This document shows, one piece after another, positions 15,780-64,000 of a DNA stretch of 64,000 nt. The notes below the pieces were generated by a model. That model was not told the DNA's origin and made no database searches. It was given only the letters and a program-made list of their open reading frames with translations. Position numbers and translations under genes: made by a program. Source of the DNA: Balanoglossus misakiensis (lineage: Eukaryota; Animalia; Hemichordata); assembly GCA_040954595.2 (NCBI GenBank), contig CM082577.2, positions 18,698,303-18,762,302 on the forward strand, written 5' to 3'. How positions within the stretch are numbered: position 1 is the first letter of the stretch; every line of letters starts with the position of its first letter.

Positions 15780-15889
15780 GGATTTCCCTTCGATTACATA
15801 GCGAACCATTTGCACAGATACTTACAGTTTTGCTGGGTTCTGTAATGTATTATTTCATCCAAAAAGCTGCACGTTTCAAGAAAGAACCA

Positions 15890-20817: not shown

Positions 20818-20818
20818 T

Positions 20819-34534: not shown

Positions 34535-34800
34535 TAGGGCACAAGCCAAGCAGGCTTGTGCCATACTGGTATTACTGGGTTTTTTAGGGCACAAGCCAAG
34601 AAGGCTTGTGCCCTATTGGTATTACTGGGGTTTTTCATCTTTAGGGCACAAGCCAAGCAGGCTTGTGCCCTATTGGTATTACTGGGGTTTTTTAGGGCAC
34701 AAGCCAAGCAGGCTTGTGCCCTATTGGTATAACTGGGGTTTTTCATTAGGGCCCAAGCGCACGGAAGCGCTTGGGCCCTATTGGTTTCGTTGGAATTTTT
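34535..34800 (+). repeat. Stack of five 5' hairpin heads (4 GGGCACAAGC + 1 GGGCCCAAGCGC)
   Basis: Heads at 34535, 34585, 34642, 34693, 34747. Confidence 0.92.
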
Positions 34801-37328
34801 CTTTCTTTCCGGCTTTCTTTCTTTCTTTATTCTTGTGTCAATTCTTTGGGCAACGAGATCTCAGACACCGCTGCAGGTACACTTCTCAAACTTGCTACAG
34901 TGGTCAAGGTCAATGAGTAGATGTGCAGTGACTTGTGAATACTTAATTAGTCACGTGACCTGGCGGCCATATTGGATTTTCTGAAAAAAATCAAATCTCA
35001 GATCTCAGAAACTACAAGTCAGATCGACTTCAAATTTGGCATGCAGGTAGACTACCTTCTACCCATCATTTTTGTAATTGGAAATTTTGCTGTCAATGTT
35101 GCAGTTTTTTTGCTACAATTTTTTTTCTGAAATCTAGCTTAAATTTCAAAAATCTTCTTCTCCAGAACCGGTGATAAGCGAGACACAAGGTTTGGGGTAT
35201 GTGGTCACCTAACTGATGTCTATCAAGTTTGCGAAGATCATTGTGATTGGTCGGAGATTATGGCGGCCATATTGGATTTTCGAAAAACCATAGTTAAACT
35301 CCAAAAATCTTCTTCTCCAGAACGGGCGATGACTGAGTCGCAAGATTCGGGGAGTATGGTCACTACACTGATGTCTATCAAGTTTGCAAAGAGCATTGTG
35401 ATTGGTCGAAGATTATGGCGGCCATATTGGATTTTGTAAAAAGCAGTGAAAAATTAAAATTCCTTTTTCTAGTATAAAAATTGATAGCATACAAATTATT
35501 TTAATGGATATCATTCGTCATATGACTACAATATGTTATAAATTTTTGGCGATTTTTCACATGACCTTTGACCTACTTTTCACACATTATTATTTCTGCA
35601 TATCTAATTCCAGGCTAACCTATAGGGCTAGACGTTTGGTTTTTGATGCATGTGGATTAGTGTGTGATCAAAATATTTTGCTACTTTTCATGACCCCTTT
35701 GACCTCTGCCGACCTCATTAATTATGTGCATAGCTAATTACAGGCGAACCAATACAGCTAGAGGTTTGGTTTTTGTTGAACATGGACCAGTATGGGGTCA
35801 AAATTTTTTGCCCAAATGTTGGGTGACCTCTGGTGACCTTTGACCTACTTTCGCATATCTCAACGTCCAGAGCAGATACAGCCTTGGCATTTGGCAGGAT
35901 GGGACCTAAATGTAAAGCCAAATTTTTGGATCACCTGTGACACCTGCTGACCTCATTAAATATGCACATACCTAATTACACGCGAACCAATAGAGCTAGA
36001 GTTTTGGCTTTTGTTGGACATGGCCCAGCATGGGTCAAAAATTTTTGCCCAAATGTTGGTGATCTCAGGTGACCTTTGACCTACTTTACCCTATTTCAGC
36101 CGCAAAAATACACACGTCCTTGTTATGTCATGAAATAATACACCCGATAGAAAATTCTGTTTCTTCTCATTCATACTGCGCATATATAATTCAAGATCAG
36201 CGCTTGGGCCCGACAATGCTGCTTGCAGCTTTAATCCTTTTTTTTTTCTTGTGTAGTTTTTTTGCTCAGGTAGATCTTGAAAACGGCTGAAACTACAAAT
36301 CTCAAACTTGGCACAGTGGTGCAGGCCTATGGGAGCTGGTGCAGTACCTTTGTGAATGTTTAATAAGTCATGTGACCTGATGACTATATATGGGCAAAGT
36401 TTTCAAATGGGCCTAATTTGCATATGAATGGAGATATCAAAATTCTTTTAGCAACTTTTGTGGACCATGTGATCAGTGTCCTACATGCCAAATATCAAGG
36501 TCATTGACCAGTATGGGGTTAAAAAAATTTGCCCAAATTCTGGGTGACCTCAGGTGACCTTTGACCTACTTTCCTATATCTCCGCATCCAGAGCAGTTAC
36601 AGACTTGGCGTTTAGAGGGTTGGGACTAAAATTGAAAAGCCAAAATTGGGGGTCACCTGTGACACCTGCTTATCTCATTAATTATGTGCATACCTAATTC
36701 CAGGCTAACCAATAGGGCTAGAGGTTTTGTTCTTGTGGGACATGGACCAGTATGAGGTTAAAAAAATTTGCCCAAATTTTGGGTGACCTCAGGTGACCTT
36801 TGACCTACTGTCCTATATCTCCGCATCAATAGCAGGTACAGACTTGGCGTTCGGAGGGTTGGGACTATAATTGAAAAGCCAAAATTGGGGGTCACCTGTG
36901 ACACCTGCTTATCTCATTAATTATGTGCATACCTAATTCCAGGCTAACCAATAGGGTTAGAGGTTTGATTTTTGTTGAACATGGACCAGTATAGGCTCAA
37001 AATTTCTTGCCCAAATTTTGCATGACCTCAGGTGACCTTTGACCTAATTTTCCATATCTTGGCAACCAGAGCAGGCAAAGACTTGGCGTTTGGAGGGTTG
37101 GGACTAAAATTGAAAAGCCAAAATTTGGGGTCACCAGTGACACCTGCATATCTCATTAATTATGTGCATACCTAATTCCAGGCTAACCAATAGGGCTAGA
37201 GGTCTGGTTTCTGTTGGACCTGCACTAGTATTGGGATCAAAACGTTTTGCCCAAATTTTGGGTGAACACATATGACCTTTGACCTTCGGCTTAAGCTTGT
37301 GCCTGTCATCGCTGCTTGCAGCTATATT

Positions 37329-37644
37329 TAGGGCACAAGCCAAGCAGGCTTGTGCCCTATTGGTATTACTGGTTTTTTTTACGGGCCCAAGCCAAGCCAG
37401 GCTTGGGCCCGTATTGGTTTCGTTGGGTTTTTACGGGCCCAAGCCAAGCCAGGCTTGGGCCCGTATTGGTTTCGTTGGAGTTTTTACGGGCCCAAGCCAA
37501 GCCAGGCTTGGGCCCGTATTGGTTTCGTTGGAATTTTTAGGGCCCAAGCGCACAGCAGCGCTTGGGCCCTATTGGTTTCGTTGGGGTTTTTAGGGCCCAA
37601 GCGCATACCAGCGCTTGGGCCCTATTGGTTTCGTTGGGGTTTTT
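37329..37644 (+). repeat. Stack of six 5' hairpin heads, ~52-bp period
   Basis: Heads at 37329 (GCAC), 37380/37432/37485 (CGGGCCC), 37538/37591 (GCGC). Confidence 0.93.
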
Positions 37645-40600
37645 CTGTCTTTCTTTCTTTCTTTCTTTATTCTTGTGTCATTTCTTTGTCGCTCTAGATC
37701 TCAGACACCGCTGCAGGTACACTTCTCAAACTTGCTACAGTGGTCAAGGTCAATGGGTAGTCGTGCATTCAACTCTTGAATTTTTAATTAGTCACGTGAC
37801 ATGGCGGCCATATTGGATTTTCTGAAAAAATGCAAATCTCAGATCTCAGAAACTACAAGTCAGATCGACTTCAAATTAGGTGTGCAGGTAGTCTACCTTC
37901 TACCCATCATTTTTGTAATTGGATATTTTGCTGTAAATGTTGCAGTTTTTTTGCTACAATTTTTTTTCTGAAATCTGGCTTAAATTTCAAAAATCTTCTT
38001 CTCCAGAACCGGTGATAACCGAGTGACGCGGTTTGGGGTATGTGGTCACCTAACTGATGTCTATCAAGTTTGATAAGAAGCATTGTGATTGGTCGAAGAT
38101 TATGGCGGCCATATTGGATTTTCGAAAAACCATAGTAAAACTGCAAAAATCTTCTTCTCCAGAACGGGCGATAACTGAGTCGCAAGATTCGGGGAGTATG
38201 GTCACAACACTGATGTCTATCAAGTTTGCAAAGAGCATTGTGATTGGTTGAAGATTATGGCGGCCATATTGGATTTTGTAAAAAGCAGTGAAAAATTGAA
38301 ATTCCTTTTCCTAGTCTAAAAATTGACAGCATACAAATTCTTTTCATGGATATCAATCATCATATGACTAAAATATGTTACAAATTTTTGGCGATTTTTC
38401 ACATGACCTTTGACCTACTTATCACGCGTTATTATTTCTGCATATCTAATTCCAGGCTAACCTATAGGGCTAGACTTTTGGTTTTTGATGCATGTGGATT
38501 AGTGTGTGATCAAAATATTTTGCTACTTTTCATGACCCCTTTGACCTCTGCTGACCTCATTAATTATGTACATAGCTAATTACAGGCGAACCAATAGAGC
38601 TAGAGGTTTGGTTTTTGTTGGACATGGACCAGTATGGGATCAAAATTTTTTGCCCAAATGTTGGGTGACCTCTGGTGACCTTTGACCTACTTTCGCATAT
38701 CTCAGCATCTAGAGCAGATACAGCCATGGCATTTTGTAGGATGGGACCAGAATGTAAAGCCACATTTTTGGGTCACCTGTGACACCTGCTGACCTCATTA
38801 AATATGCACATACCTGATTACATCCGAACCAAAAGAGCTAGAGTTTTGGTTTTTGTTGGACATGGACCAGTATGGGTAAAAAAAAATTGCCCAAATGTTG
38901 GGTGACCTTAGGTGACCTTTGACCTACTTCACTCTATTTCAGCAGCAAAAATACACACATCCTTGTTATGTCATGAGATAATACATCCGATAGAAAATTC
39001 TGTTTCTTCTCATTCATACTGTGCATATATAATTCAAGATCAGCGCTTGGGCCCGACAATGCTGCTCGCAGCTTTAATTCTTTCTTTCTTTCTTTATTCT
39101 TGGTTCACTTCTTTGTCGCTCTAGATCTCAGACACCACTGCAGGTACAGTTTTCAAACTTGCTACAGTGGTCAAGGTCAATGAGTAGTCATGCATTGAAC
39201 CCTTGAATTTTTAATTAGTCACGTGACCTGGCGGCCATATTGGAATTTCTGAAAAAATGCAAATCTCAGATCTCAGAAACTACAAGTCAGATCGACTTCA
39301 AATTTGGTGTGCAGGTAGTCTACCTTCTACCCATCATTTTTGTAATTGGATATTTTGCTGTAAATGTTGCAGTTTTTTTGCTACAATTTTTTTTCTGAAA
39401 TCTGGCTTAAATTTCAAAAATCTTCTTCTCCAGAACCGGTGATAACCGAGTGACGCGGTTTGGGGTATGTGGTCACCTAACTGATGTCTATCAAGTTTGA
39501 TAAGAAGCATTGTGATTGGTCGAAGATTATGGCGGCCATATTGGATTTTCGAAAAACGATAGTAAAACTGCAAAAATCTTCTTCTCCAGAACGGGCGATA
39601 ACTGAGTCGCAAGATTCGGGGAGTATGGTCACAACAATGATGTCTATCAAGTTTGCAAAGAGCATTGTGATTGGTCGAAGATTATGGCGGCCAAAATGGA
39701 TTTTGTAAAAAGCAGTGAAAAATTGAAATTCCTTTTCCTAGTCTAAAAATTGACAGCATACAAATTCTTTTCATGGATATCAATCGCCATATGACTAAAA
39801 CATGTTACAAATTTTTGGCGATTTTTCACATGACCTTTGACCTACTTATCACGCGTTATTATTTCTGCATATCTAATTCCAGGCTAACCTATAGGGCTAG
39901 ACTTTTAGTTTTTGATGCATGTGGATTAGTGTGTGATCAAAATATTTTGCTACTTTTCATGACCCCTTTGACCTCTGCTGACCTCATTAATTATGTGCAT
40001 AGCTAATTACAGGCGAACCAATAGAGCTAGAGGTTTGGTTTTTGTTGGACATGTACCAGTATGGGATCAAAATTTTTTTCCCAAATTTTGGGTGACCTCG
40101 GGTGACCTTTGACCTACTTTCGCATATCTCAGCATCCAGAGCAGATACAGCCATGGCATTTGGCAGGATGGGACCAAAATGTAAAGCCTCATTTTTGGGT
40201 CACCTGTGACACCTGCTGACCTCATTAAATATGCACATACCTAATTACAGCCGAACCAATAGAGCTAGAGTTTTGGTTTTTTGTTGGACATGGACCAGTA
40301 TGGGTCAAAAAAATTTGCCCAAATGTTAGGTGACCTCAGGTGACCTTTGACCTACTTCACCCTATTTCAGCAGCAAAAATACACACGTCCTTGTTATGTC
40401 ATGAGATAATACACCCGATAGAAAATTCTGTTTCTTCTCATTCATACTGTGCATATATAATTCGAGATCAGCGCTTGGGCCCGACAATGCTGCTCGCAGC
40501 TTTAATTCTTTCTTTCTTTCTTTCTTTATTCTTGTGTCAATTCTTTGACCCACGAGATCTCAGACACCGCTGCAGGTACACTTCTGAAACTTGCTACAGT

Positions 40601-41938
40601 GGTCAAGGTCAATGAGTAGTCGTGCATTGAACCCTTGAATTTTTAATTAGTCACGTGACCTGGCGGCCATCTTGGATTTTCTGAAAAAATGCAAATCTCA
40701 GATCTCAGAAACTACAAGTCAGATCGACTTCAAATTTGGCATGCTGGTAGACTACCTACTGCCCATCATTTTTGTAATTGGAAATTATGCTGACAAAGTT
40801 GCAGTTTTTTGCTACAATTTTTTTTCTGAAATCTGGCTTAAATTTCAAAAATCTTCTTCTCCAGAACCGGTGATAACCGAGACACAGGGTTTGGTGTATG
40901 TGGTCAGCTAATTGATGTCTATCAAGTTTGCGAAGATCATTGTGATTGGTCAAAGATTTTGGCGGCCATATTGGATTTTCGAAAAACCCTAGTAAAATTT
41001 CAAAAATCTTCTTCTCAAGAACCGGCGATAACCGAGTCACAAGATTTGGTGTGTGTGGTCATTAAACAGATGTCTATCATGTTTGCTAAGAAGAATGTGA
41101 TTGGTCGAAGATTATGGCGGCCATATTGGATTTTGTGAAAAACGATTATAAAGTAAAAATTCCCTTTCTAGCCTAAAAATTGATAGCACAGAAATTCTTT
41201 TTATGGATATGAATCATCATATGACAAGAATAAGCTATAAATATTTTGGTAATTTTGGCAATGACCTTTGACCTACTTTTGACGCATCATTTTTCTGCAT
41301 ATCTAATTCCAGGCTAACCAATAGGGCTATAAGTTTGGTTTTTGATGTATGTGGATTTGTATGTGATTAAAAAATTTTGCTACTTTTCATGACCCCTTTG
41401 ACCTCTGCTGACCTCATTAAATATGCACATACCTAATTACAGATGAACCAATAGACCTAGAGGTTTTGTTTTTGTTATACATGGACCAGTATGGGGTCAA
41501 AATATTTTGCCCAAATGTTGGGTGACCTTGGGTGACCTATGACCTACTTTTGCATATCTTGACATCCACAGCAGATACAGCCTTGGCGTTTGGAGGTATG
41601 GGGCCATAATGAAAAGCCAAAGTTTTAGGTCACCTATGACACCTGCTTAACTCATTATTTATGTGCATACCTAATTCCGGGCTAACCAAAAGGGCTAGAG
41701 GTCTGGTTTTTGTTGGACATGGACCACTATTGGTCAACATTTTCTGCCCAAATTGTGGGTGACCCCTGGGTGACCTTTGACCTACTTAATACTATTTCAG
41801 CACCAAACATAGATATAACCTTGATATTTCATGGGATAAAGCACAGCATTATGTTTCTACTCATTAATTATGTGCATATCTAATAATCAACTCAGATAAT
41901 AGAGCTTGGGCCCGGACAATGCTGCTTGCAGCTTTAAT

Positions 41939-42045
41939 TAGGGCCCAAGCGCTTGCTTGCGCTTGGGCCCTATTGGTTTCGTTGGGGTTTTTAGGGCCCA
42001 AGCGCAAGCAAGCGCTTGGGCCCTATTGGTTTCGTTGGAATTTTT
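41939..42045 (+). repeat. Stack of two GCGC-type hairpin heads with mutually inverted loops
   Basis: GGGCCCAAGCGC-TTGCTT-GCGCTTGGGCCC and GGGCCCAAGCGC-AAGCAA-GCGCTTGGGCCC. Confidence 0.92.
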
Positions 42046-45000
42046 CTTTCTTTCTTTCTTTATTCTCCTGTCAATTCTTCGGCCAACGAGATCTCTGAAA
42101 CTACTGCAGGTACACTGCTCAAACTTGCTACAGTGGTCAAGGTCATTGAGTAGATGTGCAGTGACTTGTGAATACTTAATTAGTCACGTGACCTGGCGGC
42201 CATATTGGATTTTCTGAAAAAATGCAAATCTCAGATCTCAGAAACTACAAGTCAGATCAACTTCAAATTTGGCATGCAGGTAGACTACCTTCTGCCCATC
42301 ATTTTTGTAATCGGAAATTATGCTGTAAAAGTTGCAGTTTTTTTGCTACAATTTTTTTCCTGAAATCTGGCTTAAATTTCAAAAATCTTCTTCTCCAGAA
42401 CCAGTGATAACCGAGTCACGGGGTTTGTGGTATGTGGTCACCTAACTGATGTCTATCAAGTTTGCGAAGATCATTGTGATTGGTCGAAGATTATGGCGGC
42501 CATATTGGATTTTCGAAAAACCATAGTTAAACTCCAAAAATCTTCTTCTCAAGAACGGACGATGACTAAGTCGCAAGATTCGGGGAGTATGGTCACTACA
42601 CTGATGTCTATCAAGTTTACAAAGAGCATTGTGATTGGTCGAAGATTATGGCGGCCATATTGGATTTTGTAAAAAGCAGTGAAAAATTGAAATTCCTTTT
42701 TCTAGTCCAAAAATTGATAGCATACAAATTCTTTTTATGGATATCAATCGTCATGTGACTAAAATATGTTACAATTTTTTGGCGATTTTTCACATGACCT
42801 TTGACCTACTTATCATGCGTTATTATTTCTGCATATCTAATTCCAGGCTAACCTATAGGGCTAGACGTTTGGTTTTTGATGAATGTGGATTAGTGTGTGA
42901 TCAAAATATTTTGCTACTTTTCATGACCCCTTCGACCTCTGCTGACCTCATTAATTATGTGCATAGCTAATTACAGGCGAACCAATAGAGCTAGGGGTTT
43001 GGTTTTTGTTGGACATGGACCAGTATGGGATCAAAATTTTTTGCCCAAATGTTGGGTGACCTCTGGTGACCTTTGACCTACTTTCGCATATCTCAGCATC
43101 CAGAGCAGATACAGCCATAGCATTTGGTAGGATGGGACCAAAATGTAAGGCCACATTTTTGGGTCACCTGTGACACCTGCTGACCTCATTAAATATGCAC
43201 ATACCTAATTACAGGCGAACCAATAGAGCTAGAGTTTTGGTTTTTGTTGGACATGGACCAGTATGGGTCAAAAAAATTGCCCAAATGTCGGGTGACTTCA
43301 GGTGACCTTTGACTTACTTCACCCTATTTCAGCGCAAAAATACACACATCCTTGTTATGTCATGAGATAATACATCCGATAGAAAATTCTGTTTCTTCTC
43401 ATTCATACTGTGCATATATAATTCAAGATCAGCGCTTGGGCCCGACAATGCTGCTCGCAGCTTTAATTCTTTCTTTCTTTCTTTCTTTTTTCTTGTGTCA
43501 ATTCTTCGGCCAACTAAATCTCTGAAACTACTGCAGGTACACTTCTCAAACTTGCTACAGTGGTCAAGGTCAATGAGTAGATGTGCAGTGGCTTGTGAAT
43601 ATTTAATTAGTCACGTGACATGGCGGCCATATTGGATTTTCTGAAAAAATGCAAATCTCAGATCTCAGAAACTACAAGTCAGATCGACTTCAGATTTGGC
43701 GTGCAGGTAGTGTACCTTCAGCCCATCATTTTTGTATTTGGATATTTTGCTGTCAATGTTGCAGTTTTTTTGCTACAGTTGTTTTTCTGAAATCTGGTCA
43801 AAATTTCAAAAATCTTCTTCTCCAGAACCGGCGATAACCAAGTCACGCGGTTTGGGGTATGTGGTCACCTAACTGATGTCTATCAAGTTTGCGAAGATCA
43901 TTGTGATTGGTCGAGGATTATGGCGGCCATATTGGATTTTCGAAAAACCATAGTTAAACTCCAAAAATCTTCTACTCCAGAACGGGCGATGACTGAGTCT
44001 CAAGATTCGGGGAGTATGGTCACTACACTGATGTCTATCAAGTTTGCAAACAGCATTGTGATTGGTCGAAGATTATGGCGGCCATATTGGATTTTGTAAA
44101 AAGCAGTGAAAAATTGAAATTCCTTTTCCTAGTCTAAAAATTGATAGCATACAAATTCTTTTCATGGATCTCAATCGTCATATGACTAAAATATGTTACA
44201 AATTTTTGGCGATTTTTCACATGACCTTTGACCTACTTATCACGCGTTATTATTTCTGCATATCTAATTCCTGGCTAACCTATAGGGCTAGACGTTTGGT
44301 TTTTGATGAATGTGGATTAGTGTGTGATCGAAATATTTTGCTACTTTTCATGACCCCTTTGACCTCTGCTGACCTCATTAATTATGTGCATAGCTAATTA
44401 CAGGCGAACCAATACAGCTAGAGGTTTGGTTTTTGTTGGACAAGGACCAGTATGGGGTCAATTTTTTTTGCCCAAATGTTGGATGACCTCTGGTGACCTT
44501 TGACCTACTTTCGCATATCTCAGCATCCAGAACAGATACAGCCATGGCAGTTGGCAGGATGGGACCAAAATGTAAAGCCACATTTTGGGGTCACCTGTGA
44601 CACCTGCTGACCTCATTAAATATGCACATACCTAATTACAGGCGAACCAATAGAGCTAGAGTTTTGGTTTTTGTTGGACATGGACGAATATGGGTCAAAA
44701 AAAATTTCCCAAAATTTGGGTGACCTCAGGTGACCTTTTACCTACTTTACTCTATTTCTGCAGCAAAAATACAAACGTCCTTGTTATGTCATGAGATAAA
44801 AAACCTGATAGAGCATTCTGTTTCTTCTCATTCATACTGTGCATATATAATTCCGGATCAGCGCTTGGGCCCGACAATGCTGCTTGCAGCTTTAATTCTT
44901 TCTTTATTCTTATGTCAATCTTTGCTCTCCTAGATCTCTGAAACGGCTACAGGTACACTTCTCAAACTTGCTACAGTGGTCAAGGTCAATGAGTAGATGT

Positions 45001-48000
45001 GCAGTGGCTTGTGAATATTTAATTAGTCACGTGACCTGGTGGCCATATTGGATTTTCTGAAAATCTTTAAATGGCTTCTTCTCAAAAACCACAGGGCCAA
45101 TCAAGTTCAAATTTGGTGTATGGTACACATGTCCTCTGCCCTTCAAAGTTTGACAATAAAATCCTGAGCGATCACGTGACTTTGGCCGCCATATTGGATT
45201 TTCAAAAAAGTACAGTAAAATCTTCAAAAATCTTCTTCTCCAGAACCGGCAATAACCGAGTCATGGGATTTAGGGTATGACATCACCTAACTGATGTCTA
45301 TCAAGTTTGCGAAGAGCGTTGTGATTGGTCGAAGATTATGGCGGCCATATTGGATTTTGTAAAAACCAGCGAAAATTAAGAAATCATTTTTCTAGTCTAA
45401 AAATAGATAGCATACAAATTCTTTTTATGGATATGAGTCGTGATATGACTAGAATATGTTGCAAATTTTTTGGCAATTTTCACATGACCTTTGACCTACT
45501 TTTTTAAGAACCTGCATATATGCATATATAGCTCATACTACCTGTTCTAAATGTACCAGAGTTCTGATTTTTGTGCACATTGGTATCACCCCTGCCAGGA
45601 CCTACCCCAAATATTTTGGTAATTTTTGCAATGACCTTTGACCTACTTTTGACACATCGTTTTTTCTGCATATCTAATTCCAGGCTAACCTATAGGGCTA
45701 TCATTTTGGTTTTTGATGTATGTGGATTTGTATGTGATCAAAAAATTTCGCTACTTTTCATGACCCCTTTGACCTCTGCTGACCTCATTAAATATGTGCA
45801 TACCTAATTACAGATGAACCAATAGACCTAGAGGTTTGGTTTCTGTTGGACATGGACCAGTATTGGGTCAAAAATTTTTGCCCAAATGTTGGGTGACCTC
45901 GGGTGACCTTTGACCTACTTTTGCATATCTCGACATCCACCGCAGATACAGCCTTGGCGTTTGGAGGTATGGGGCCATAATGAAAAGCCAAAGTTTTGGG
46001 TCACCTGTGACACCTGCTTAACTCATTATTTATGTGCATACCTAATTCCGGGCTAACAAAAAGGGCTAGAGGTCTGGTTTTTGTTGGACATGGACCACTA
46101 TGGGTCAAAATTTTCTGCCCAAATTTTGGGTGACCTCAGATGACCTTTGACCTACTTAACACTATATCAGCACCAAACATAGATATAACCTTGATATTTC
46201 ATGGGATGAAACACAGCATTATGTTTCTACTCATTAATTATGTGCATATCTAATAATCTGATCAGATAATAGAGCTTGGGCCCGGACAATGCTGCTTGCA
46301 GCTTTAATTTCTTTCTTTCTTTATTCTTATGTCAATTCTTTGCTCTCCTAGATCTCTGAAACGGCTACAGGTACACTTCTCAAACTTGTTACAGTGGTCA
46401 AGGTCAATGAGTAGATGTGCAGTGGCTTGTGAATATTTAATTAGTCACGTGACCTGGCGGCCATATTGGATTTTCTGAAAATCTTTAAATGGCTTCTTCT
46501 CAAAAACCACAGGGCCAATCAAGTTCAAATTTGGTGTATGGTACACATGTCCTCTGGCCTTCAAAGTTTGACAATAAAATCCTGAGCGGTCACGTGACTT
46601 TGGCCGCCATATTGGATTTTCGAAAAAGTACAGTAAAATCTTCAAAAATCTTCTTCTCCAGAACCGGCAATAACCGAGTCATGGGATTTAGGGTATGACA
46701 TCACCTAACTGATGTCTATCAAGTTTGCGAAGAGCATTGTGATTGGTCGAAGATTATGGCGGCCATATTGGATTTTGTTAAAACCAGTGAAAATTAAGAA
46801 ATCATTTTTCTAGTCTAAAAATAGATAGCATACAAATTCTTTTTATGGATATGAGTCGTCATATGACTAAAATATGTTGCAAATATTTTGGCAATTTTCA
46901 CATGACCTTTGACCTACTTTTTTAAGAACCTGCATATATGCATATATAGCTCATACTACGTGTTCTAAATGTACCAGAGTTCTGATTTTTGTGCACATTG
47001 GTATCACCCCTGCCAGGACCTACCCCAAATATTTTGGTAATTTTGGCAATGACCTTTGACCTACTTTTGACACATCATTTTTTCTGCATATCTAATTCCA
47101 GGCTAACCTATAGGGCTATCATTTTGGTTTTTGATGTATGTGGATTTGTATGTGATCAAAAAATTTCGCTACTTTTCATGACCCCTTTGACCTCTGCTGA
47201 CCTCATTAAATATGCGCATACCTAATTACAGATGAACCAATAGACCTAGAGGTTTGGTTTTTGTTGGACATGGACCAGTATTGGGTCAAAATTTTCTGCC
47301 CAAATTTTGGGCGACCTGCTTAACTCATTATTTATGTGCATACCTAATTCCGGGCTAACCAAAAGGGCTAGAGGTCTTGTTTTTGTTGAACATGGACCAC
47401 TATGGGTCAAAATTTTCTGCCCAAATTTTAGGTGACCTCAGATGACCTTTGACCTAATTTTGCATATCTCTGCATCCAAAGCAGGTACAGCCTTGGCATT
47501 TGGAATATGGGGCCATAATGAAAAGCCAAAGTTTTGGGTCACCAGTGACACCTGCTTAACTCATTATTTATGTGCATACCTAATTCCGGGCTAACCAAAA
47601 GGGCTAGAGGTCTGGTTTTTGTTGGACATGGACCACTATGGGTAAAATTTTCTGCCCAAATTGTGGGTGACCTCTGGGAGACCTTTGACCTACTTAACAC
47701 TATATCAGCACCAAACATAGATATAACCTTGATATGTCATGGGATAAAACACAGCATTATGTTTCTACTCATTAATTATGTGCAGATCAGATAATAGAGC
47801 TTGGGCCCGGACAATGCTGCTTGCAGCTTTAATCTTTTTTTTTTTTCTTGTGTCGTTTTTTTGCCCAACAGGATCTTGAAAACGGCTGAACCTACAAATC
47901 TCAAACGTGGCACAGTGGTGCAGGCCTATGAGAGCTGGTGCTGTACCCTCGTGAATGTTTAATAAGTCATGTGACCTGATGACCATATATGGGCAAAGTT

Positions 48001-51807: not shown

Positions 51808-51844
51808 TATGGAAAGCCACAGCTGTCTTAAGTCCATTGTTACC

Positions 51845-52250
51845 ATTATATGCTCTGCATACATCATTATACCCTGCTCGTACATCATTATACGACACTC
51901 GTACATCATAATACAATGTGCATACATCATTATACAATGTGCATATATCATTATACAATGTGCATACATCATTATACGATATGCATACATCATTATACAA
52001 TGTGCATACATCATTATACGACGCTCATACATCTTTATACAATGTGTATACATCATTATACAATGTGCATATATCATTATACGATGTGCATACATCATTA
52101 TACGCTGCTTGTGCATCATTATACGCTGTGGATACATCATTATACGCTGCCCATACAGAATTATACGACGCTTATGCATCATTATATGACGCTTATACAT
52201 CATTATACGCTGCTTGTGCATCATTATACGCTGTGCATACATCATTATGC
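51845..52250 (+). repeat. 21-bp minisatellite (TACATCATTATACAATGTGCA-like) in left TIR arm
   Basis: Tandem degenerate 21-mers. Confidence 0.9.
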
Positions 52251-52680
52251 GTCGCTCATTCACCATGATACTATGCCCATTCAACATACGGTGCGCGTTT
52301 GGCTTTATACTATGCCGACATGTCATTATGATATGCTATTCCTAACCCCAATTCCGTCAAAGAGGGCGCACTTATACACATGACGGTACTGAAGTAAGAC
52401 TTGGATTCGACCATCGCGGTTTGGCATCTGCAGTACGAGTATGAAAATAAGTTTTTATAACTCTGTAAAAATATGAATATATTTGATCAAACTCTTTCGA
52501 CATGTTATGTATGATATTTTTGGCACCAAATCACAGTTTTTGCACATCAGAAATTGTTTAATACATATTTTATCATCGAGAAACATACTTCGATGATAAA
52601 AAGATATAATTTTGAAATTTTCGGCTTGAATAAACATTTTTTGGGTGAGAAAAATGTCATACATAACAAGTACAGATTAA

Positions 52681-54310
52681 ATTAAAGCTGCAAGCAGCGT
52701 TGGCGGGGCACAAGCGGTTCCCATGGTAACCAGCAAATGCCAAGGCTGTATCTGCTGTGGATACCAAGATATGGGAAAGTCATCGTCGCAAACCACGGCC
52801 CTTTTACGGCAGCGCTCTGCTCCCCCAAAAAGGACGTGGTATAATACGGCCATGTATTCAGTATTTGGTCTAGGCGCTTTCATAGTACACCCAACAACCA
52901 ATCAGATTGCTTGTTACATCCCATTCACGCATCTCATTACATCTCATTCTAAACAACATGGCGGCTTCCAGTGTGGAAGTGCTATTGTCCCAGCTCTCCT
53001 CGAGAGACGGGCTTTGATTGGCCAGATTATAATGATGTCATCTCATGAATATGCATTACCAATATGTTCAAATACCAGCGCGGTACTCCATTTTAACCAG
53101 AGTACGTGATTTCGATAGTGAAACGAAAGAAATCCGTAGTCTGGTGGGGCGAGAATGGGGAAAGTAAGTCAAAAGTCACCTGAGGTCACCCCATATTTGC
53201 ACAAAAATATTGGACCTCATACTAGTCTGCGTCCAACAAAAACCAGACCCGTAGCCCTATTGGTTCGCCTAGAATTAGGTATGCACATAATTAATGAAGT
53301 CTTGTGTAAGACTCCATTGTGCTCAATCCCCCCAAAAGCCAGGGCTCTAACTGCTGCGGCTGCTGAGATATGGGAAATTAGATCAAAGGTCACCCAAGGT
53401 CACCCAAAATTTGGGCATAAAATGTTGACCCCATAGTGGACCATGTCCAACAAACACACGACCTCTAGCCCTATTGGTTAGCCTGGAATAAGATATGCAG
53501 AAAAATGATGTTTCAGAAATAGGTCAAAGGTCATTGCTAAAATTCCCAAAATATTTGTGTCATGTCCTGGTAGCAGTGGTACCCATGTCCACAAATTTCA
53601 TGACTGTGGTGCTGTTGCAAGAGGAGGTACAAGGCATATGCATATATAATTAGTTGTTTTAAAACTGGGTCAAAGGTCATGGGAAAATTGGACCCCCCCC
53701 CAAAAAAAAAAAAAAAAAAAATAATAATAATAATAATTGTGACAAGTTCCGGTCATATGATGACTCATATCCACAAAAAGATTTTCCATGCTGTCATCAT
53801 TTTGGCTACAAAACGGAATTTTCATTTTTCAATGGTTTTCCGAAAATCCAATATGGCCGCCATAACGATAGACCAATCACAGTGCGCTTCGCATACTATA
53901 TAGACATAGGTTAGGTGACCACATACCCCGAATCCCGTGACTCGGCAATCGCTGGTTCTGGAGGAGAAGATTTTTTAAAGTTTTAAGTAGTTTTTCAGAA
54001 AAACAATTGTAGCAAAAAACCTGCAACTTTGACAGCATAATTTCCAATTACAAAAATGATGGACAGAAGGTAGTCTACCTGCACGCCAAATTTAAAGGTG
54101 ATCAGACTTGTAGTTTCTGAGATCTGAGATTTGCATTTTTCACGAAATCCAATAAGGCCGCCAGGTCACGTGACTAATTAAATATTCACAAGCCACTGCA
54201 CATCTACTCATTGACCTTGACCACTGTTGCAAGTTTGAGAAGTGTACCTGCAGTAGTTTCAGAGATCTAGTTGGCCGAAGATTGACAGGAGAATAAAGAA
54301 AGAAAAACCC
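52681..54310 (-). mobile_element. Inverted, chimeric, headless non-autonomous Helentron inside the long-TIR element
   Basis: ATTAAAGCTGCAAGCAGCGTTGGCGGGGCACAAGC is the reverse complement of the P 3' end; switches to GCCC-family 5' body sequence near 54020. Confidence 0.85.
52781..53157. mobile_element. 377-bp insertion with 8-bp TSD and imperfect TIRs (Zisupton- or hAT-like)
   Basis: GGGAAAGT at 52773-52780 and 53158-53165; ends CATCGTCGC...GCGAGAATG. Confidence 0.7.
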
Positions 54311-54429
54311 GAAAAGTGCGCCCTCTTTGACGGAATTGCGGTTAGGCATAGCATATCATAATGACATGTCTGCATAGTATAAAGCCAAACGCGCACCGTA
54401 TGTTGAACGGGCATAGTATCATGGTGAAT

Positions 54430-54885
54430 GAGCGACGTATAATGATGTAGGCACAGCGTATAATGATGAAGGCACAGCGTATAATGATGTATGCACAGCG
54501 TATAATGCTGTATACACATTGTATAAAGATGTATGGGCAGCGTATAATGATGTATGGGCAATGTATAATGATGTATTCACAGCGTATAACGATGCACAAG
54601 CAGCGTATAATGATGTATGCACATTGTATAAAGATGTATGAGCGTCGTATAATGATGTATGGGCAATGTATAATGGTGTATTCACAGCGTATAACGATGC
54701 ACAAGCAGCGTATAATGATGTATGCACATTGTATAAAGATGTATGAGCGTCGTATAATGATGTATGGGCAATGTATAATGATGTATTCACATCGTATAAC
54801 GTTGCACAAGCAGCGCATAATGATGTATACACATTGTATAAAGATGTATGAGCGTCGTATAATGATGTATGGGCATCATATAATG
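54430..54885 (-). repeat. 21-bp minisatellite in right TIR arm (inverted)
   Basis: GTATAATGATGTATGCACATT-like units. Confidence 0.9.
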
Positions 54886-57800
54886 GTAACAATGGACTTA
54901 AGACAGCTGTGGCTCTCCATACTTGTGCCCTATTGGTATTACTGGGGTTTTTTAGGGCACAAGCCAAGCAGGCTTGTGCCCTATTGGTATAACTGGGGTT
55001 TTTCATCCTTTTTTTTTTCTTGTGTAGTTTTTTTGCTCAGGTAGATCTTGAAAACGGCTGAAACTACAAATCTCAAACTTGGCACAGTGGTGCAGGCCTA
55101 TGGGAGCTGGTGCAGTACCTTTGTGAATGTTTAATAAGTCATGTGACCTGATGACTATATATGGGCAAAGTTTTCAAATGGGCCTAATTTGCATATGAAT
55201 GGAGATATCAAAATTCTTTTAGCAACTTTTGTGGACCATGTGATCAGTGTCCTACATGCCAAATCTCAAGGCCGTAGGCCAAGTCTATTTTGAGAAGAAG
55301 ACTTGTAAATATTAGTAGTTTTTCATATTTTTGGACCCAGCCATGGGCCTATACTTTCTATAGTTAAGCTATGACGCCATGTACACGTCTGTGCAATGGT
55401 CCTGTACAGTGACTGCCTACTGGCCTGTGAGCAGAATGGGACATTAAAAGGCAAAATTTCGGGCTCACCTGTAACACCTGCTAAACTCATTAATTATGTG
55501 CATACCTAATTCCGGGCTAACTAATAGGGCTAGAGGTTTCGTTCTTTTTGGTCATTGACCAGTATGGGGTTAAAAAAATTTGCCCAAATTCTGGGTGACC
55601 TCAGGTGACCTTTGACCTACTTTCCTATATCTCCGCATCCAGAGCAGTTACAGACTTGGCGTTTAGAGGGTTGGGACTAAAATTGAAAAGCCAAAATTGG
55701 GGGTCACCTGTGACACCTGCTTATCTCATTAATTATGTGCATACCTAATTCCAGGCTAACCAATAGGGCTAGAGGTTTTGTTCTTGTGGGACATGGACCA
55801 GTATGAGGTTAAAAAAATTTGCCCAAATTTTGGGTGACCTCAGGTGACCTTTGACCTACTGTCCTATATCTCCGCATCAATAGCAGGTACAGACTTGGCG
55901 TTCGGAGGGTTGGGACTATAATTGAAAAGCCAAAATTGGGGGTCACCTGTGACACCTGCTTATCTCATTAATTATGTGCATGCCTAATTCCAGGCTAACC
56001 AATAGAGCTATAGGTTTGATTTTTGTTGAACATGGACCAGTATAGGGTCAAAATTTCTTGCCCAAATTTTGCATGACCTCAGGTGACCTTTGACCTAATT
56101 TACCATATCTTGGCAACCAGAGCAGGCAAAGACTTGGCGTTTGGAGGGTTGGGACTAAAATTGAAAAGCCAAAATTTGGGGTCACCAGTGACACCTGCAT
56201 ATCTCATTAATTATGTGCATACCTAATTCCAGGCTAACCAATAGGGCTAGAGGTTTTGTTCTTGTGGGACATGGATCAGTATGGGGTCAAAAATTTTGCC
56301 CAAATTTTGAGGGACCTCAGGTGACCTTTGACCTACTTTGCTATATCTTGGCATCCAGAACAGGTACAGCATTTGTGTTTGGATGGATCGAACTATTAAT
56401 GGAGTCTTACACTTTACATCATTAATTATGTGCATATCTAATTTCAGACTAACAAATAGGGCTAGAGGTTAGGTTTCTGTTGGACCTGGACTAGTATGGG
56501 GGTCAAAACTTTGTGCCCAAATTTTGGGTGACCACATATGACCTTTGACCTTCGGCTTAAGCTTGTGCCCGTCATCGCTGCTTGCAGCTATATTTCATCC
56601 TCTTCTTTTTCTGGTGTAGTTTTTTTGCCCAATAGGATCTTGAAAACGGCTGAACCTACAAATCTCAAACTTGGCACAGTGATGCAGACCTATGAGAGCT
56701 GGTGCAGCACCCTCGTGAATGTTTAATAAGTCATGTGACCTGATGACCATATATGGGCAAAGTTTTCAAATGGGCCTAATTTGCATATGAATGGAGATAT
56801 CAAAATTCTTTTAGCAATTTTTGCGGACAATGTGGTCAGTGTCCTACATGCCAAATGTCAAAGCCGTGGGCCAAGTCTATTTTGAGAAGAAGATTATTAA
56901 TCATTATTTGTCATATTTGTGGACCCAGCCATAGGCCTATACTTTCTATAGTTAAGCTATGACGCTATGTCCACGTCTGTGCAATTGTCCTGTACAGTGA
57001 CAGTCTAGTGGCCCGTGAGCTGAATGGGACCAAAATAAAAGACAAAATTTTGGGCTCACCTGTAACACCTGCTTAACTCATTAATTATGTGCATGCCTAA
57101 TTCCGGGCTAACTATTAGGGCTAGAGGTTTTGTTCTTGTGGGACATGGACCAGTATGGGATCAAAAATTTTTGCCTAAGTTTTGGGTGACCTCAGGTGAC
57201 CTTTGACCTACTTTCCTATATCTCGGCATCCACAGCAGGTACAGACTTGGCGTTTGGAGGGTTGTGACTAAAATTGAAAAGACAAAATTGGGGGTCACCT
57301 GTGACACCTGCTTATCTCATTAATTATGTGCATACCTAATTCCAGGCTAACCAATAGGGCTAGAGGTTTGATTTTTGTTGAACATGGACCAGTATGGGGT
57401 TAAAATTTCTTGCCCAATTTTCGGTGACCTCAGGTGACCTTTGACCTACTTTACCGTATCTCGGCAACCCATGCAGATACAGCCTTGGCTTTTGGAGGCA
57501 TGGAACTCCTAATGGAGCCTTATACTTTACCTCATTAATTATGTGCATATATAATTCTAGGCGAACCAATAGGGCTAGATGTCTGGTTTTTGTTGGACCT
57601 GGACTAGTATGGGGTCAAAATTTTTTGCCCAAATTTTGGGTGACCACATATGACCTTTGACCTTCGGCTTAAGCTTGTGCCCGTCATCGCTGCTTGCAGC
57701 TATATTTAGGGCACAAGCCAGGCAGGCTTGTGCCCTATTGGTATTACTGGGGTTTTTCATCCTCTTCTTTTTCTTGTGTAGTTTTTTTGCACAATAGGAT

Positions 57801-59107
57801 CTTGAAAACGGCTGATTCTACAAATCTCAAACTTGGCACAGTGATGCTGGCCTATGAGAGCTGGTGCAATATCCCTGTGAATGTTTAATTAGTCATGTGA
57901 CCTGATGACCATATATGGGCAAAATTTTCAAATGGGCCTAATTTGCATATGAATGGAGATATCGAAATTCTTTTAGCAACTTTTGTGGACCATGTCATCA
58001 GTGTCCTACATGCCAAATATCAAGGTCGTGGGCCAAGTCTATTTTGAGAAGAAGACTTGTAAATATTAGTAGTTTTTCATATTTTTGGACCCAGCCATGG
58101 GCCTATACTTTCTATAGTTAAGCTATGACGCCATGTACACGTCTGTGCAATGGTCCTGTACAGTGACTGCCTACTGGCCCATGAGCAGAATGGGACCACA
58201 ATAAAAGGCAAAATTTCGGGCTCACCTGTAACACCTGCTTATCTCATTAATTATGTGCATACCTAATTCCAGGCTAACCAATAGGGCTAGAGGTTTTGTT
58301 CTTGTGGGACATGGACCAGTATGAGGTTAATTTTTTTTTACCCAAATTTCAGGTGACCTCAGGTGACCTTTGACCGACTGTCCTATATCTCCGCATCAAT
58401 AGCAGGTACAGACTTGGCGTTTGGAGGGTTGGTAATTGAAAAGCCAAAATTGGGGGTCACCTGTGACACCTGCTTATCTCATTAATTATGTGCATACCTA
58501 ATTCCAGGCTAACCAATAGGGTTAGAGGTTTGATTTTTGTTGAAGATGGACCAGTATAGGGTCAAAATTTCTTACCCAAATTTTGCATGACCTCAGGTGA
58601 CCTTTGACCTAATTTACCATATCTTGGCAACCAGAGCAGGCACAGACTTAGCGTTTGGAGGGTTGGGACTAAAATTGAAAACCAAAATTGGGGGTCACCA
58701 GTGACACCTGCATATCTCATTAATTATGTGCATACCTAATTCCAGGCTAACCAATAGGGCTAGAGGTTTTGTTCTTGTGGGACATGGATAAGTATGGGGT
58801 CAAAAATTTTGCCCAAATTTTGGGTGACCTCAGGTGACCTTTGACCTACTTTGCTATATCTTGGCATCCAGAACAGGTACAGGATTTGTGTTTGGATGGA
58901 TCAAACTATTAATGGAGTCTTACACTTTACATCATTAATTATGTGCATATCTAATTTCAGACAAACCAATAGGGCTAGAGGTCAGGTTTCTGTTGGACCT
59001 GGACTAGTATGAGGGTCAAAACTTTTTGCCCAAATTTTGGGTGACCACATATGACCTTTGACCTTCGGCTTAAGCTTGTGCCCGTCATCGCTGCTTGCAG
59101 CTATATT

Positions 59108-59316
59108 TACGGGCCCAAGCCAAGCCAGGCTTGGGCCCGTATTGGTTTCGTTGGGGTTTTTAGGGCCCAAGCGCAAGCAAGCGCTTGGGCCCTATTGGTT
59201 TCGTTGGGGTTTTTTAGGGCCCAAGCCCAGCAGGCTTGGGCCCTATTGGTATTACTGGGGTTTTTTAGGGCCCAAGCCCAGCAGGCTTGGGCCCTATTGG
59301 TATTACTGGGGTTTTT
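59108..59316 (+). repeat. Stack of four hairpin heads (CGGGCCC, GCGC, R, R)
   Basis: Heads at 59108, 59161, 59215, 59266. Confidence 0.92.
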
Positions 59317-62300
59317 CTTCTACTTCTTCTTCTTTTTCTTCTTCTGTCGTTTTCTTTGGCGAGGTAGATCTGGAAAACTGCTAAACCTACCAATTTCAAA
59401 CTTGGCACAATGGTGCAGGCCAATGAGAGCTAGTGCAGTACCCTTGTGAATGTTTAATTAGTCACGTGACTTGATGACCATATATGGGCAGAATTTTCAA
59501 ATCAGCCTTATTTGCATATGAATGGAGATATCAAAATTCTTTTAGCAACTTTTGCGGACCATGTGGTCAGTGTCCTACATGCCAAATGTCAAGGCCATTG
59601 GCCATGCCAATTTTCAGAAGAAGATTTTTAAGTATTATTTTTGATATTTTTTGACCAAGCCATGTGCCTATACTTTCCATAGTAAAGCTATGACCACATA
59701 TTATTTTGGATAAATATGCATACATATCTCAAAATCTGTTAGACCAATCATCTCCAACTTTGGTGTGCAGCTAGCCTAGCATTGGTCAATAATTTTAAGC
59801 AGAAAAAAATAATATGAAAAATCGACCGATTTTTTTATATTAATTTTTTTATTAAATTTATACCTTTACTTATACCTCTATGGTTAAGCTATGTCCATGT
59901 CTTATTGTGGAATTCTGGTCTGTGCAATAGTCCTGTCAGTGAGCACAATGGCACCAAAATAAAAGGCACACTTTTAGGCTCACCTGTAACACCTGCTTAA
60001 CTCATTAATTATGTGCATACCTAATTGTGGGCTAACTAAGAGGGCTAGAGGTTTCTTTCTTGTGGGACATGGACCAGTATTGGGTCAAAATTTCTTGCCC
60101 AAATTTTGCATGACCTCAGGTGACCTTTGACCTACTTTACCATATCTTGGCACCCAGGTCAGGTACAGACTTGGCGTTTGGAGGGTTGGGACTAAAATTG
60201 AAAAGCCAAAATTGGGGGTCACCTGTGACACCTGCATATCTCATTAATTATGTGCATACCTAATTCCAGGCTAACCAATAGGGCTATAGGTTTGGTTGTT
60301 GTTGAACATGGACCAGTATAGGGTCAAAATTTCTTGCCCAAATTTTGCATGACCTCAGGTGACCTTTGACCTACTTTACCAGATCTTGGCATCCAGAGCA
60401 GGTACAGACTTGGCGTTTGGAGGGTTGGTACTAAAATTGAAAAGCCAAAATTGGGGGTCACCTGTGACACCTGCCTACCTCGTTAATTATGTGCATACCT
60501 AATTCCAGGCTAACAAATAAGGCTTTAGGTTTGGTTTTTGTTGAACATGGACCAGTATAGGGTCAAAATTTCTTGCCCAAATGTTGCATGACCTAAGTGA
60601 CCTTTGACCTACTTTTCCATATCTTGGCATCCAGAGCAGATATGCTTATTGCTATGTTGCTATGTGCTATGTTGGCTTGGGCCCGCTATTGCTGCTTGCA
60701 GCTATATTCTTCTACTTCTTCTTCTTTTTCTTCTTCTGTCATTTTCTTTGGCGAGGTAGATCTGGAAAACTGCTAAACCTACCAATTTCAAACTTGGCAC
60801 AATGGTGCAGGCCAATGAGAGCTAGTGCAGTACCCTTGTGAATGTTTAATTAGTCACGTGACCTGATGACCATATATGGGCAAAATTTTCAAATCCGCCT
60901 TATTTGCATATGAATGGAGATATCACAATTCTTTTAGCAACTTTTGCGGACCATGTGGTCAGTGTCCTACATGCCAAATGTCAAGGCCATTGGCCATGCC
61001 AATTTTGAGAAGAAGATTTTTAAGTATTATTTTCCATATTTTTTGACCAAGCCATGGGCCTATACTTTACATAGTAAAGCTATGACCACATATTATTTTG
61101 GATAAATATGCATACATATCTCAAAATCTGTTAGGCCGATCATCTCCAACTTTGGTGTGCAGCAAGCCTAGCATTTGTCAATAATTTTAAGCAGAAAAAA
61201 ATAATATGAAAAATCGACAGATTTTTTTATATTAATTTGTTTATTAAATTTATACCTTTGCTTATACCTCTATGGTTAAGCTATGTCCATGTCTTATTGT
61301 GGAATTCTGGTCAGTGCGATAGTCCTGTACAGTGAGTGTCTATTGGTCAGTGAGCACAATGGCACCAAAATAAAAGGCAAAATTTTAGGCTCACCTGTAA
61401 CACCTGCTTAACTCATTAATTATGTGCATACCTAATTCTGGGCTAACTAAGAGGGCTAGAGGTTTCGTTCTTGTGGGACATGGACCAGTATAGGGTCAAA
61501 ATTTCTTGCCCAAATTTTGGGTGACCTCAGGTGACCTTTGACCTACTTTCCTATATCTCGGCATCCAGAGCAGGTACAGACTTGGCGTTTGGAGGGTTGG
61601 GACTAAAATTGAAAAGCCAAAATGGGGGTCACCTGTGACACCTGCCTACCTCATTAATTATGTGCATACCTAATTCCAGGCTAACCAATAGGGCTATAGG
61701 TTTGGTTTTTGTTGAACATGGACCAGTATAGGTTCAAAATTTCTTGCCCAAATTTTGCTTGACCTTAGGTGACCTTTGACCTACTTTACCAGATCTTGGC
61801 ATCCAGAGCAGGTACAGACTTGGCGTTTGGAGGGTTGGGACTAAAATTGAAAAGCCAAAATTGGGGATCACCTGTGACACCTGCCTACCTCATTAATTAT
61901 GTGCATACCTAATTCCAGGCTAACCAATAGTGCTATAGGTTTGGTTTTTGTTGAACATGGACCAGTATAGGGTCAAAATTTCTTGCCCAAATTTTGCATG
62001 AACTCAGTTGACCTTTGACCTACTTTACCATATCTTGGCATCCAGAGTAGATATGCTTATTGCTATGTTGCTATGTGCTATGTGCTATGTTGGCTTGGGC
62101 CCGCTATTGCTGCTTGCAGCTATATTCTTTCTTTCTTTCTTTCTTTCTTTTTTCTTGTGTCAATTCTTCGGCCAACTAAATCTCTGAAACTACTGCAGGT
62201 ACACTGCTCAAACTTGCTACAGTGGTCAAGGTCTATGAGTAGATGTGCAGTGACTTGTGAATACTTAATTAGTCATGTGACCTGGCGGCCATCTTGGATT

Positions 62301-64000
62301 TTCTGAAAAAAATCAAATCTCAGATCTCAGAAACTACAAGTCAGATCGACTTCAAATTTGGCATGCAGGTAGACTACCTTCTACCCATCATTTTTGTAAT
62401 TGGAAATTTTGCTGTCAATGTTGCAGTTTTTTTGCTACAATTTTTTTTCTGAAATCTGGCTTAAATTTCAAAAATCTTCTACTCCAGAACCGGTGATAAC
62501 CGAGACACGGGGTTTGGGGTATGTGGTCACCTAACTGATGTCTATCAAGTTTGCGAAGATCATTGTGATTGGTCGAAGATTATGGCGGCCATATTTGATT
62601 TTCGAAAAACCATAGTTAAACTCCAAAAATCTTCTTCTCCAGAGCGGGCGATAACTGAGTTGCAAGATTCGGGGAGTATGGTCACTACACGGATGTCTAT
62701 CAAGTTTGCAAAGAGCATTGTGATTGGTCGAAGATTATGGCGGCCATATTGGATTTTGTAAAAAGCAGTGAAAATTTGAAATTCCTTTTTCTAGTCTAAA
62801 AATTGATAGCATACAAATTCTTTTTATGGATATCAATCGTCATGTGACTAAAATAGGTTACAATTTTTTGGCGATTTTTCACATGACCTTTGACCTACTT
62901 ATCACGCGGTATTATTTCTGCATATCTAATTCCAGGCTAACCTATATGGCTAGACGTTTGGTTTTTGATGAATGTGGATTAGTGTGTGATCAAAATATTT
63001 TGCTACTTTTCATGACCCCTTTGACCTCAGCTGACCTCATTAATTATGTACATAGCTAATTACAGGCGAACCAATAGAGCTAGAGGTTTTGTTTTTGTTG
63101 GACATGGACCAGTATGGGATCAACATTTTTTGCCCAAATTATTGGTGACCTCTGGTGACCTTTGACCTACTTTCGCATATCTCAGCATCCAGAGCAGATA
63201 CAGCCATGGCATTTGGTAGGATGGGACCAAAATGTAAAGCCAAATTTTTGGGTCACCTGTGACACCTGTTGACCTCATTAAATATGCACATACCTAATTA
63301 CAGGTGAACCAATAGAGCTAGAGTTTTGGTTTTTGTTGGACATGGACCAGTATGGGTAAAAAAAAATTGCCCAAATGTTGGGTGACCTCAGGTGACCTTT
63401 GACCTACTTCACCCTATTTAAGCAGCAAAAATACACACATCCTTGTTATGTCAAGATATAATACATCCGATAGAAAATTCTGTTTCTTCTCATTCATACT
63501 GTGCATATATAATTCAAGATCAGCGCTTGGGCCCGACAATGCTGCTCGCAGCTTTAATTCTTTCTTTCTTTCTTTATTCTTGGTTCACTTCTTTCGCGCT
63601 CTAGATCTCAGGCACCGCTGCAGGTACAGTTCTCAAACTTGCTACAGTGGTCAAGGTCAATGAGTAGATGTGCAGTGACTTGTGAATACTTAATTAGTCA
63701 CGTGACATGGCGGCCATATTGGATTTTCTGAAAAAATGCAAATCTCAGATCTCAGAAACTACAAGTCAGATCGAGTTCAGATTTGGCGTGCTGGTAGTAT
63801 ACCCTCTGCCCATCATTTTTGTAATTGGATATTTTGCTGTCAATGTTGCAGTTTTTTTGCTACAGTTGTTTTTCTGAAATCTGGTCAAAATTTCAAAAAT
63901 CTTCTTCTCCAGAACCGGCGATAACCGAGTCACGCCGTTTGGGGTATGTGGTCACCTAACTGATGTCTATCAAGTTTGCGAAGATCATTGTGATTGGTCG

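Follow-up and report, generated by a model that had tools for sequence, protein, structure and literature searches.

A probable nest of Helentron copies interrupting copies at a T-run behind the 5′ hairpin in Balanoglossus misakiensis

How can a locus come to carry up to six 5′ ends of a transposable element in a row, followed by bodies that lack a 5′ end of their own? This question is raised by a stretch of 64,000 nt from the hemichordate Balanoglossus misakiensis (GCA_040954595.2, contig CM082577.2, 18,698,303–18,762,302, + strand; referred to as the window), in which a + strand motif scan over the whole length revealed 29 hairpin-bearing 5′ ends (referred to as heads) and 32 3′ ends of Helentron-type copies. 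Self-comparison of the window indicated that sequence of this family covers positions 1–1,900 and 17,200–64,000, in five subtypes (H, Q, C, G and R); a single end lies on the minus strand, at 52698. A preliminary description of this DNA had proposed that heads and ends pair in reverse order, as opening and closing brackets, because new copies insert into a T-run inside resident ones. The heads, stacks and ends that it listed were all recovered, three of the ends (Q49179, R60708 and R62126) lying 1 nt away. The overall explanation that we favour, and consider likely, is that of one nest in which copies interrupted copies at the T-run of the head, probably through integration by the RepHel transposase that may be guided by the terminal repeat.

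Judged from their sequence features, the copies are Helitron2/Helentron (HINE) elements. In all five subtypes (5/5), a terminal repeat of 10–12 bp begins at nt 3 within the 5′ hairpin, while an inverted copy of it ends exactly 24 nt before the 3′ terminus (5/5), with a short palindrome after it; the terminal repeats change in concert from subtype to subtype. The heads are perfect 13–14-bp hairpins that fold from nt 1 at –16 to –19 kcal/mol, and the short 3′ stem folded in 3/3 ends tested. Read along the + strand, the second arm of the hairpin is identical to the 3′ terminal repeat in both sequence and direction. The target was TTTT followed by T or C in 11/12 head and body pairs, and no target duplication was found; the twelfth target (TCAT followed by CC, with a 2-nt boundary ambiguity and again no duplication) belongs to the filled and empty site pair described below. 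For Helitron2, Bao and Jurka (2013, PMC3627910) give a 5′ repeat 0–2 nt from the end in a hairpin, a 3′ repeat 20–30 nt from the end before a hairpin, and insertion between TTTT and T/C without duplication. This Helitron2 (HLE2) layout of 5′ hairpin repeat, 3′ repeat spacing and target is that of the present copies, whereas the marks of Helitron1 (5′-TC, CTRR-3′, insertion between A and T) are absent, the ends being TA... and ...AT or ...TT and the insertions falling between T and T or T and C. The termini, the target and the RepHel domain set detailed below thus bear out the Helentron identity claimed before.

The order of heads and ends was examined by parsing the array as a stack. Across 34535–63558, last-in-first-out (LIFO) pairing matched 16/17 ends with a head of the same subtype, against 4/17 for first-in-first-out (FIFO) pairing. 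Six of the LIFO matches are trivially intact elements, leaving 10/11 for the non-trivial pairs; none of 20,000 label shuffles reached the LIFO score (p ≤ 5e-5, also with the intact elements held fixed), and merging G and C still yielded p = 4e-4 to 7e-4 for the non-trivial pairs. Specifically, the stack at 37329 is followed by ends G39078, G40506 and C41938, then by two further heads (G41939 and G41992), and then by ends G43467, G44896, C46308, C47833 and Q49179, while the stack at 59108 is followed by R60708, R62126 and G63558. Within 37329–49179 alone, 8/8 ends matched (p = 0.003–0.016; with G and C merged p = 0.12–0.17, not significant). Over 132–63558, 20 of the 24 paired ends matched, or 23/24 with G and C merged, with seven ends headless within the window and five heads remaining open. 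The reverse closing order proposed in the preliminary description therefore held against the shuffles. The one mismatch in its range, which it left unmentioned, is a C end at 51674 with a Q head on top of the stack, and is caused by a 99.4%-identical duplication.

Because the subtype labels follow that description and were fixed after the data had been seen, a label-free phase test was added. The end of the hairpin and the first C after the T-run are 22 nt apart in each of the 12 intact elements. Joining the head piece to the leading Ts of its paired body restored these 22 nt in 11/12 pairs (shuffle mean 4.3, p = 1.6e-4), the one miss being due to an extra T, and in 10/11 pairs (p = 0.002) when the CAT-site pair was left out. 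Moreover, when the rejoined starts were scored against the intact elements, the best score fell in the right class (Q, R or G/C) in 11/12 cases and in the exact subtype in 9/12. The twelfth rejoin, of C59108 with the body at 63559, scored 286 against G and 285 against C, which is still the G/C class, so that in silico excision led to class agreement in 12/12 cases. Only 442 nt of this last body fall within the window. It belongs to the G/C class and has the phase expected for head C59108, and over this length its nearest 5′ matches are bodies ending in G (94.0%) and in C (93.3%). In contigs derived from reads (three runs of one sample, hence not independent, and with depth not read as copy number), the rejoined start predicted for head C37432 and body 44897 (joint 37483–44896) was present at a depth of 2170, with a short side of 20 letters.

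These results bear on whether heads and bodies might instead have been amplified separately, the heads by 52-bp slippage and the bodies as rolling-circle concatemers or 5′-truncated copies. Such a history would suit the runs of like heads (QQQQ, CCC, GG, RR), and both 5′-truncated Helitron2 copies and tandem arrays are known (PMC3627910, PMC5876387). It is nevertheless already disfavoured, and in our view highly improbable, since mixed subtypes close in reverse, the T-run phase agrees pair by pair, and the bodies are 94–98% identical to their nearest relative rather than clonal. Reverse order and pairwise phase, together with the filled and empty site pair, support the earlier rejection of rolling-circle concatemers, and make nested insertion very probable.

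This site pair stems from a later duplication between Q bodies, in which 48929–56254 matches 32633–37203 at 99.4% identity (17 differences over the 2814 nt compared), extends over element borders and repeats the Q,Q,Q,Q stack at 51675–55002. The duplicated block also supplies the 3′ portion of the body on which the Q49179 closing depends. A G element (34747–36235) fills the fourth Q head (34693), while the duplicate head at 54953 is empty and no target duplication accompanies the insertion; its presence in only one duplicate is explained by a local single insertion. The same comparison is informative on the idea that pre-built composites supplied part of the depth, in which case the order of containment would differ from the order of local arrival. 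In Fusarium, FoHeli elements with multiple 5′ termini transpose as units (PMC5148889), and here the ten-kilobase nest at 37329–48900 is absent from the 99.4% duplicate, while some end-to-head and end-to-headless-body junctions missing from the window occur in the contigs at depths of 690–1140. Composites carrying two heads per end would, however, leave unpaired heads, whereas the numbers and phases of heads and bodies agree, and the G element at 34747 came in singly; we therefore regard this contribution as unlikely. The contigs also contain an H head before a C head and a G end before a G head, junction types missing from the window, and nesting is thus not confined to it.

An assembly artefact, at least for the duplication, might arise if, for example, two haplotypes had been joined in tandem. 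Between the duplicates there is 0.6% divergence together with insertion polymorphisms, as might be seen between alleles, and no contig among those listed spans the stacks. In contrast, the window contains no N, junctions between an end and a head or between two heads are overlapped by contigs of 58–60 nt, and a junction of two Q heads lies within a 90-nt contig that extends 52 and 31 letters to its sides. Phase-correct brackets are, moreover, not expected from an assembler, and the filled and empty site pair counts whether it is allelic or paralogous. We consider an artefact distinctly improbable.

If copies were inserted into copies, the next question is where. Interrupted hosts were cut at the head site in 19/21 cases and in their interior in 2/21. 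This count comprises 14 observed cuts (3 duplicates removed), 5 deduced from the starts of headless bodies and the 2 interior ones; junctions between an end and a head were excluded as ambiguous, the count with all heads included being 25/27. As the head site holds some 3% of the + strand TTTT sites, the binomial probability is 2e-27, or 2e-17 when 10% is assumed. The window was chosen as a nest, a choice that leaves the position of the cut within the element unexplained. The cut falls in a T-run ~50–57 nt inside the 5′ end and 20–28 nt behind the hairpin (~45–55 bp inside the 5′ end in the preliminary description). Counting from the repeat's 10-nt core, head-after-head junctions (n = 17) lie 21–28 nt on and head-after-end junctions (n = 12) 24–28 nt on. 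The claim of orientation-specific insertion adds no separate evidence, because the T-run exists on one strand only.

These distances might indicate that the head is read as an element end. The RepHel transposase would integrate new copies at the T-run, guided by the copy of the terminal repeat in the second arm of the hairpin. In this way the head would mimic a true 3′ end, with second arm and T-run together forming a false element end. The donor would presumably be a circular copy with joined ends, as shown for the Helitron1 element Helraiser (PMC5876387) and suggested for FoHeli1 (PMC5148889). The enzyme might then nick the nearest T-run and exchange strands with the circle junction, by analogy with Rep78/68 of adeno-associated virus (AAV) and with TrwC, HUH enzymes that integrate at targets carrying their own binding and nick sites (PMC6049929); these belong to other protein families, and what was demonstrated experimentally for them is suggested here by the spacing. 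As each newcomer would supply a fresh target site, stacks would deepen, and unequal crossover and template mixing could later blur the record. We put forward repeat read-out as the targeting step tentatively, holding it to be plausible at somewhat less than even probability.

A close rival is targeting by structure only, in which extrusion of the hairpin would open the TTTT run next to it, a sequence that any Helitron2 transposase prefers. The folding energies of the heads fit this, as do single-stranded DNA being the substrate of HUH enzymes (PMC5876387), the 11/12 targets that follow the Helitron2 rule (PMC3627910), and insertions that cross subtypes with repeats differing by 1–3 nt. The usual cut is also 2–4 nt short of 24, which is what brings this rival close. 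It offers no reason, on the other hand, for a distance that brackets the 24 nt measured at the true end, and we rate it as somewhat unlikely. Structure-only targeting and repeat read-out are inseparable by sequence alone.

Several observations weigh against a repeat-guided nest. The cut lies 20–22 nt, not 24, beyond the repeat copy in 11/12 pairs, so that its position may follow from the TTTT rule and the agreement in spacing may be due to chance. Two H insertions are interior, without an upstream copy of the repeat, and copies with unrelated flanks are present in the contigs, so that targeting is not exclusive. Heads after ends (12/29) are no proof that 3′ ends serve as targets, since an identical junction arises when the head site of the host is used again. 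H alone closely shares the ends of the autonomous copy, and mobilisation of Q, C, G and R by its transposase is presumptive. The contigs represent one sample, probably the assembly's own source. Finally, G heads close on C ends in 3/3 cases at 20819–28138, and typing segment by segment along the bodies showed them to be mosaic.

What the nest records is consequently to be read with some reserve. The ordered log of insertions envisaged in the preliminary description stands as a partial containment order, edited by recombination, which is interrupted by side-by-side copies, the duplication behind the mismatch at 51674 and the mosaics. The self-made safe harbour that was also envisaged there is conjectural, given the copies whose flanks are unrelated. 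Order is ambiguous among side-by-side copies, 12/29 heads directly following an end. The expectation that inner copies are younger was not borne out, nesting depth and similarity to the nearest relative (a crude proxy for age) being uncorrelated (Spearman 0.16, p = 0.56, n = 15).

The candidate source of the transposase is an H-type autonomous Helentron, overlooked in the preliminary description, which directly follows an H end at 131 and has a headless H body at its 3′ side. Since it lies between H head 132 and H end 17530, it is itself a member of the nest, which therefore fills the window. Its 2483-aa frame encodes OTU, DUF6570, Rep (Helitron_like_N), PIF1 helicase and endonuclease domains; PF14214, PF05970 and PF20209 exceed the cut-off, DUF6570 being an HLE2 marker, and the PF03372 endonuclease, a Helentron criterion, is fused to RepHel at residues 2273–2462 (29.4 bits versus a cut-off of 24.5). 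As the HUH, YxxxY, Walker A/B and endonuclease motifs were all found, the transposase gene is apparently intact, as far as its sequence can tell. The best protein matches were from Haliotis and Saccoglossus (64–69% over the Rep region), and the closest proteins came from abalone, acorn worm, hagfish and fishes, the nearest having the same domain set. We also considered the hairpin as the 3′ end, based on the reversed gene, and rejected this, as the published conventions make the hairpin-first orientation standard; reversed gene orientation is already known in the Helitron2/Helentron group (PMC4067079, PMC3627910, PMC5148889). The small copies have no long frames outside repeats. A non-autonomous H body is 94.9% identical to the first 1 kb of the autonomous copy, and similar termini alone point to the latter as a possible partner of Q, C, G and R.

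How far is such a nest already known? Its layout and target rule are those of Helitron2, with a reversed RepHel as in Helitron-1_DR, although the available text reports neither a fixed target within the element nor nests (PMC3627910). The Helentron/HINE/DINE-1 group (Thomas et al. 2014, PMC4067079; oyster Cg_HINE, PMC7492417) likewise has an endonuclease-bearing RepHel with OTU, a 5′ subterminal inverted repeat (subTIR) with an inverted repeat, a microsatellite, internal repeats, a 3′ palindrome and T-rich targets; its copies are dispersed or tandem there, and self-nesting at one site is not described in the accessible parts. The closest precedent is FoHeli of Fusarium (Chellapan et al. 2016, PMC5148889), a Helitron2 in which the first 31, 65, 73 or 85 nt are repeated and self-insertion near the 5′ end was proposed; the same paper reads three tandem copies in Metarhizium as a possible double insertion into the 5′ end. 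The preliminary description, whose author knew of no such account, is thereby not supported on this point, self-insertion giving multiple 5′ termini being already published. As far as the available text goes, FoHeli elements mostly have two termini, one 3′ end and one subgroup and spread as chimeras, whereas the present locus has up to six heads in a row, several subtypes, matching bodies, one narrow site and a filled and empty pair. HelenXT233, a frog HLE2 (HELIANO, Li et al. 2024, PMC11417382), also has two different left termini in direct repeat, as a single pair that the consulted portion does not read as a target site. Self-nesting was not found in the accessible parts of PMC13085455 or PMC3630058. 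Our literature search, outside which fell most subscription papers, Repbase reports and the Fusarium PDF supplement, found neither a deep multi-subtype nest at a fixed site nor the idea of a false end. Apparently new, in the sense of not being found in that search, is thus a deep, multi-subtype nest at one fixed site, cut 20–28 nt past a copy of the terminal repeat, the true 3′ end lying 24 nt past another such copy.

An apparently intact transposase beside a narrow, repeatedly used target turns the choice between hairpin, repeat and T-run into a question that can be assayed. Nests further account for headless fragments and orphan termini, which annotation tools would mis-split, and yield a partial chronology of subtypes. 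Target choice by Helitron circles is, to our knowledge, the least understood step of transposition. For Helraiser, the available text gives only the AT rule for it (PMC5876387). One could tentatively extend the proposal to the whole Helentron clade as a self-targeting integrase system, in which the transposase reads its own terminal repeat and each copy carries a built-in attachment site; we hold this to be possible rather than probable. If true, nests larger than 64 kb and across subtypes would be expected in many animal genomes, with a direct handle on circle target choice and subfamilies that could be ordered in time. The head pattern had 0 matches in the metagenome contigs and 0 in the viral contigs, and none of 8 Rep-related loci, which may stop short of the termini, had a 3′ palindrome or a hairpin stack. 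One metagenome locus with a related RepHel (L004) has short matches, at 3496–3549 and 3949–3980, to the non-coding bodies of the family.

Table 1. Parts of the nest and of its autonomous member, in window coordinates
Feature	Position	Strand	Remark
Autonomous Helentron, H type	132..17530	+	begins with the hairpin head at 132 and closes at 17530 with the 3′ terminal repeat and palindrome
Stop-free 2483-aa frame	5372..12823	-	orientation opposite to that of the termini
Two headless H bodies, then 3′ part of an interior-cut R body	17531..20818	+	heads left of the window
Side-by-side G/C-class elements and G,C head pair at 24937/24991	20819..28138	+	mosaic copies
Headless H body, interior-cut Q remnant, intact Q (30131-31561), headless Q and C bodies	28139..34534	+	
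Stack of four Q heads	34535..34746	+	
Intact G element within Q head 34693	34747..36235	+	
Body of the Q element headed at 34693	36236..37328	+	
Stack of six heads Q,C,C,C,G,G	37329..37643	+	
Eight bodies closing G,G,C,(G,G),C,C,Q	37644..49179	+	inner G,G stack at 41939/41992
Second copy of 32633-37203	48929..56254	+	breakpoints within Q bodies
Headless Q body closing head 51782, then intact Q	56595..59107	+	
Stack of four heads C,G,R,R	59108..59315	+	
Bodies closing R,R,G	59316..63558	+	
Start of the next headless G/C-class body	63559..64000	+	cut by window edge

Some further details of the locus were noted. Three extra bases (24934–24936) between a C end and G head 24937 match the start of the H body at 28139, and a second site, 3 nt on in an ATT repeat, was therefore used. 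In one case, that of G head 41939, the hairpin loop reads as the reverse complement of the loops of heads 41992 and 59161, resembling the flips of hairpin replication. The interior-cut Q remnant is interrupted by ~240 bp of unrelated sequence at 29447–29686. Within the RepHel frame, a 54-bp tandem repeat (10885–11410) encodes an 18-aa repeat, and elsewhere in the autonomous Helentron an element at 14080–14805, with GGG...CCC inverted ends and a TAA duplication, is one that we take to be PIF/Harbinger-like. Two other elements occur in one duplicate only. The first, a 603-bp element at 49667–50269 with short inverted ends (AG...CT) and a TTAA duplication, is presumably Kolobok-like. The second is a foldback element (51808–54921) in the hairpin of Q head 51782, whose long terminal inverted repeats starting with TATGG and 6-bp target duplication suggest IS3EU. 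This foldback element contains, on the minus strand at 52681–54310, a headless Helentron whose start is G/C-like and whose end is of the H type, interrupted at ~52780–53140, which is the only family copy in reverse orientation.

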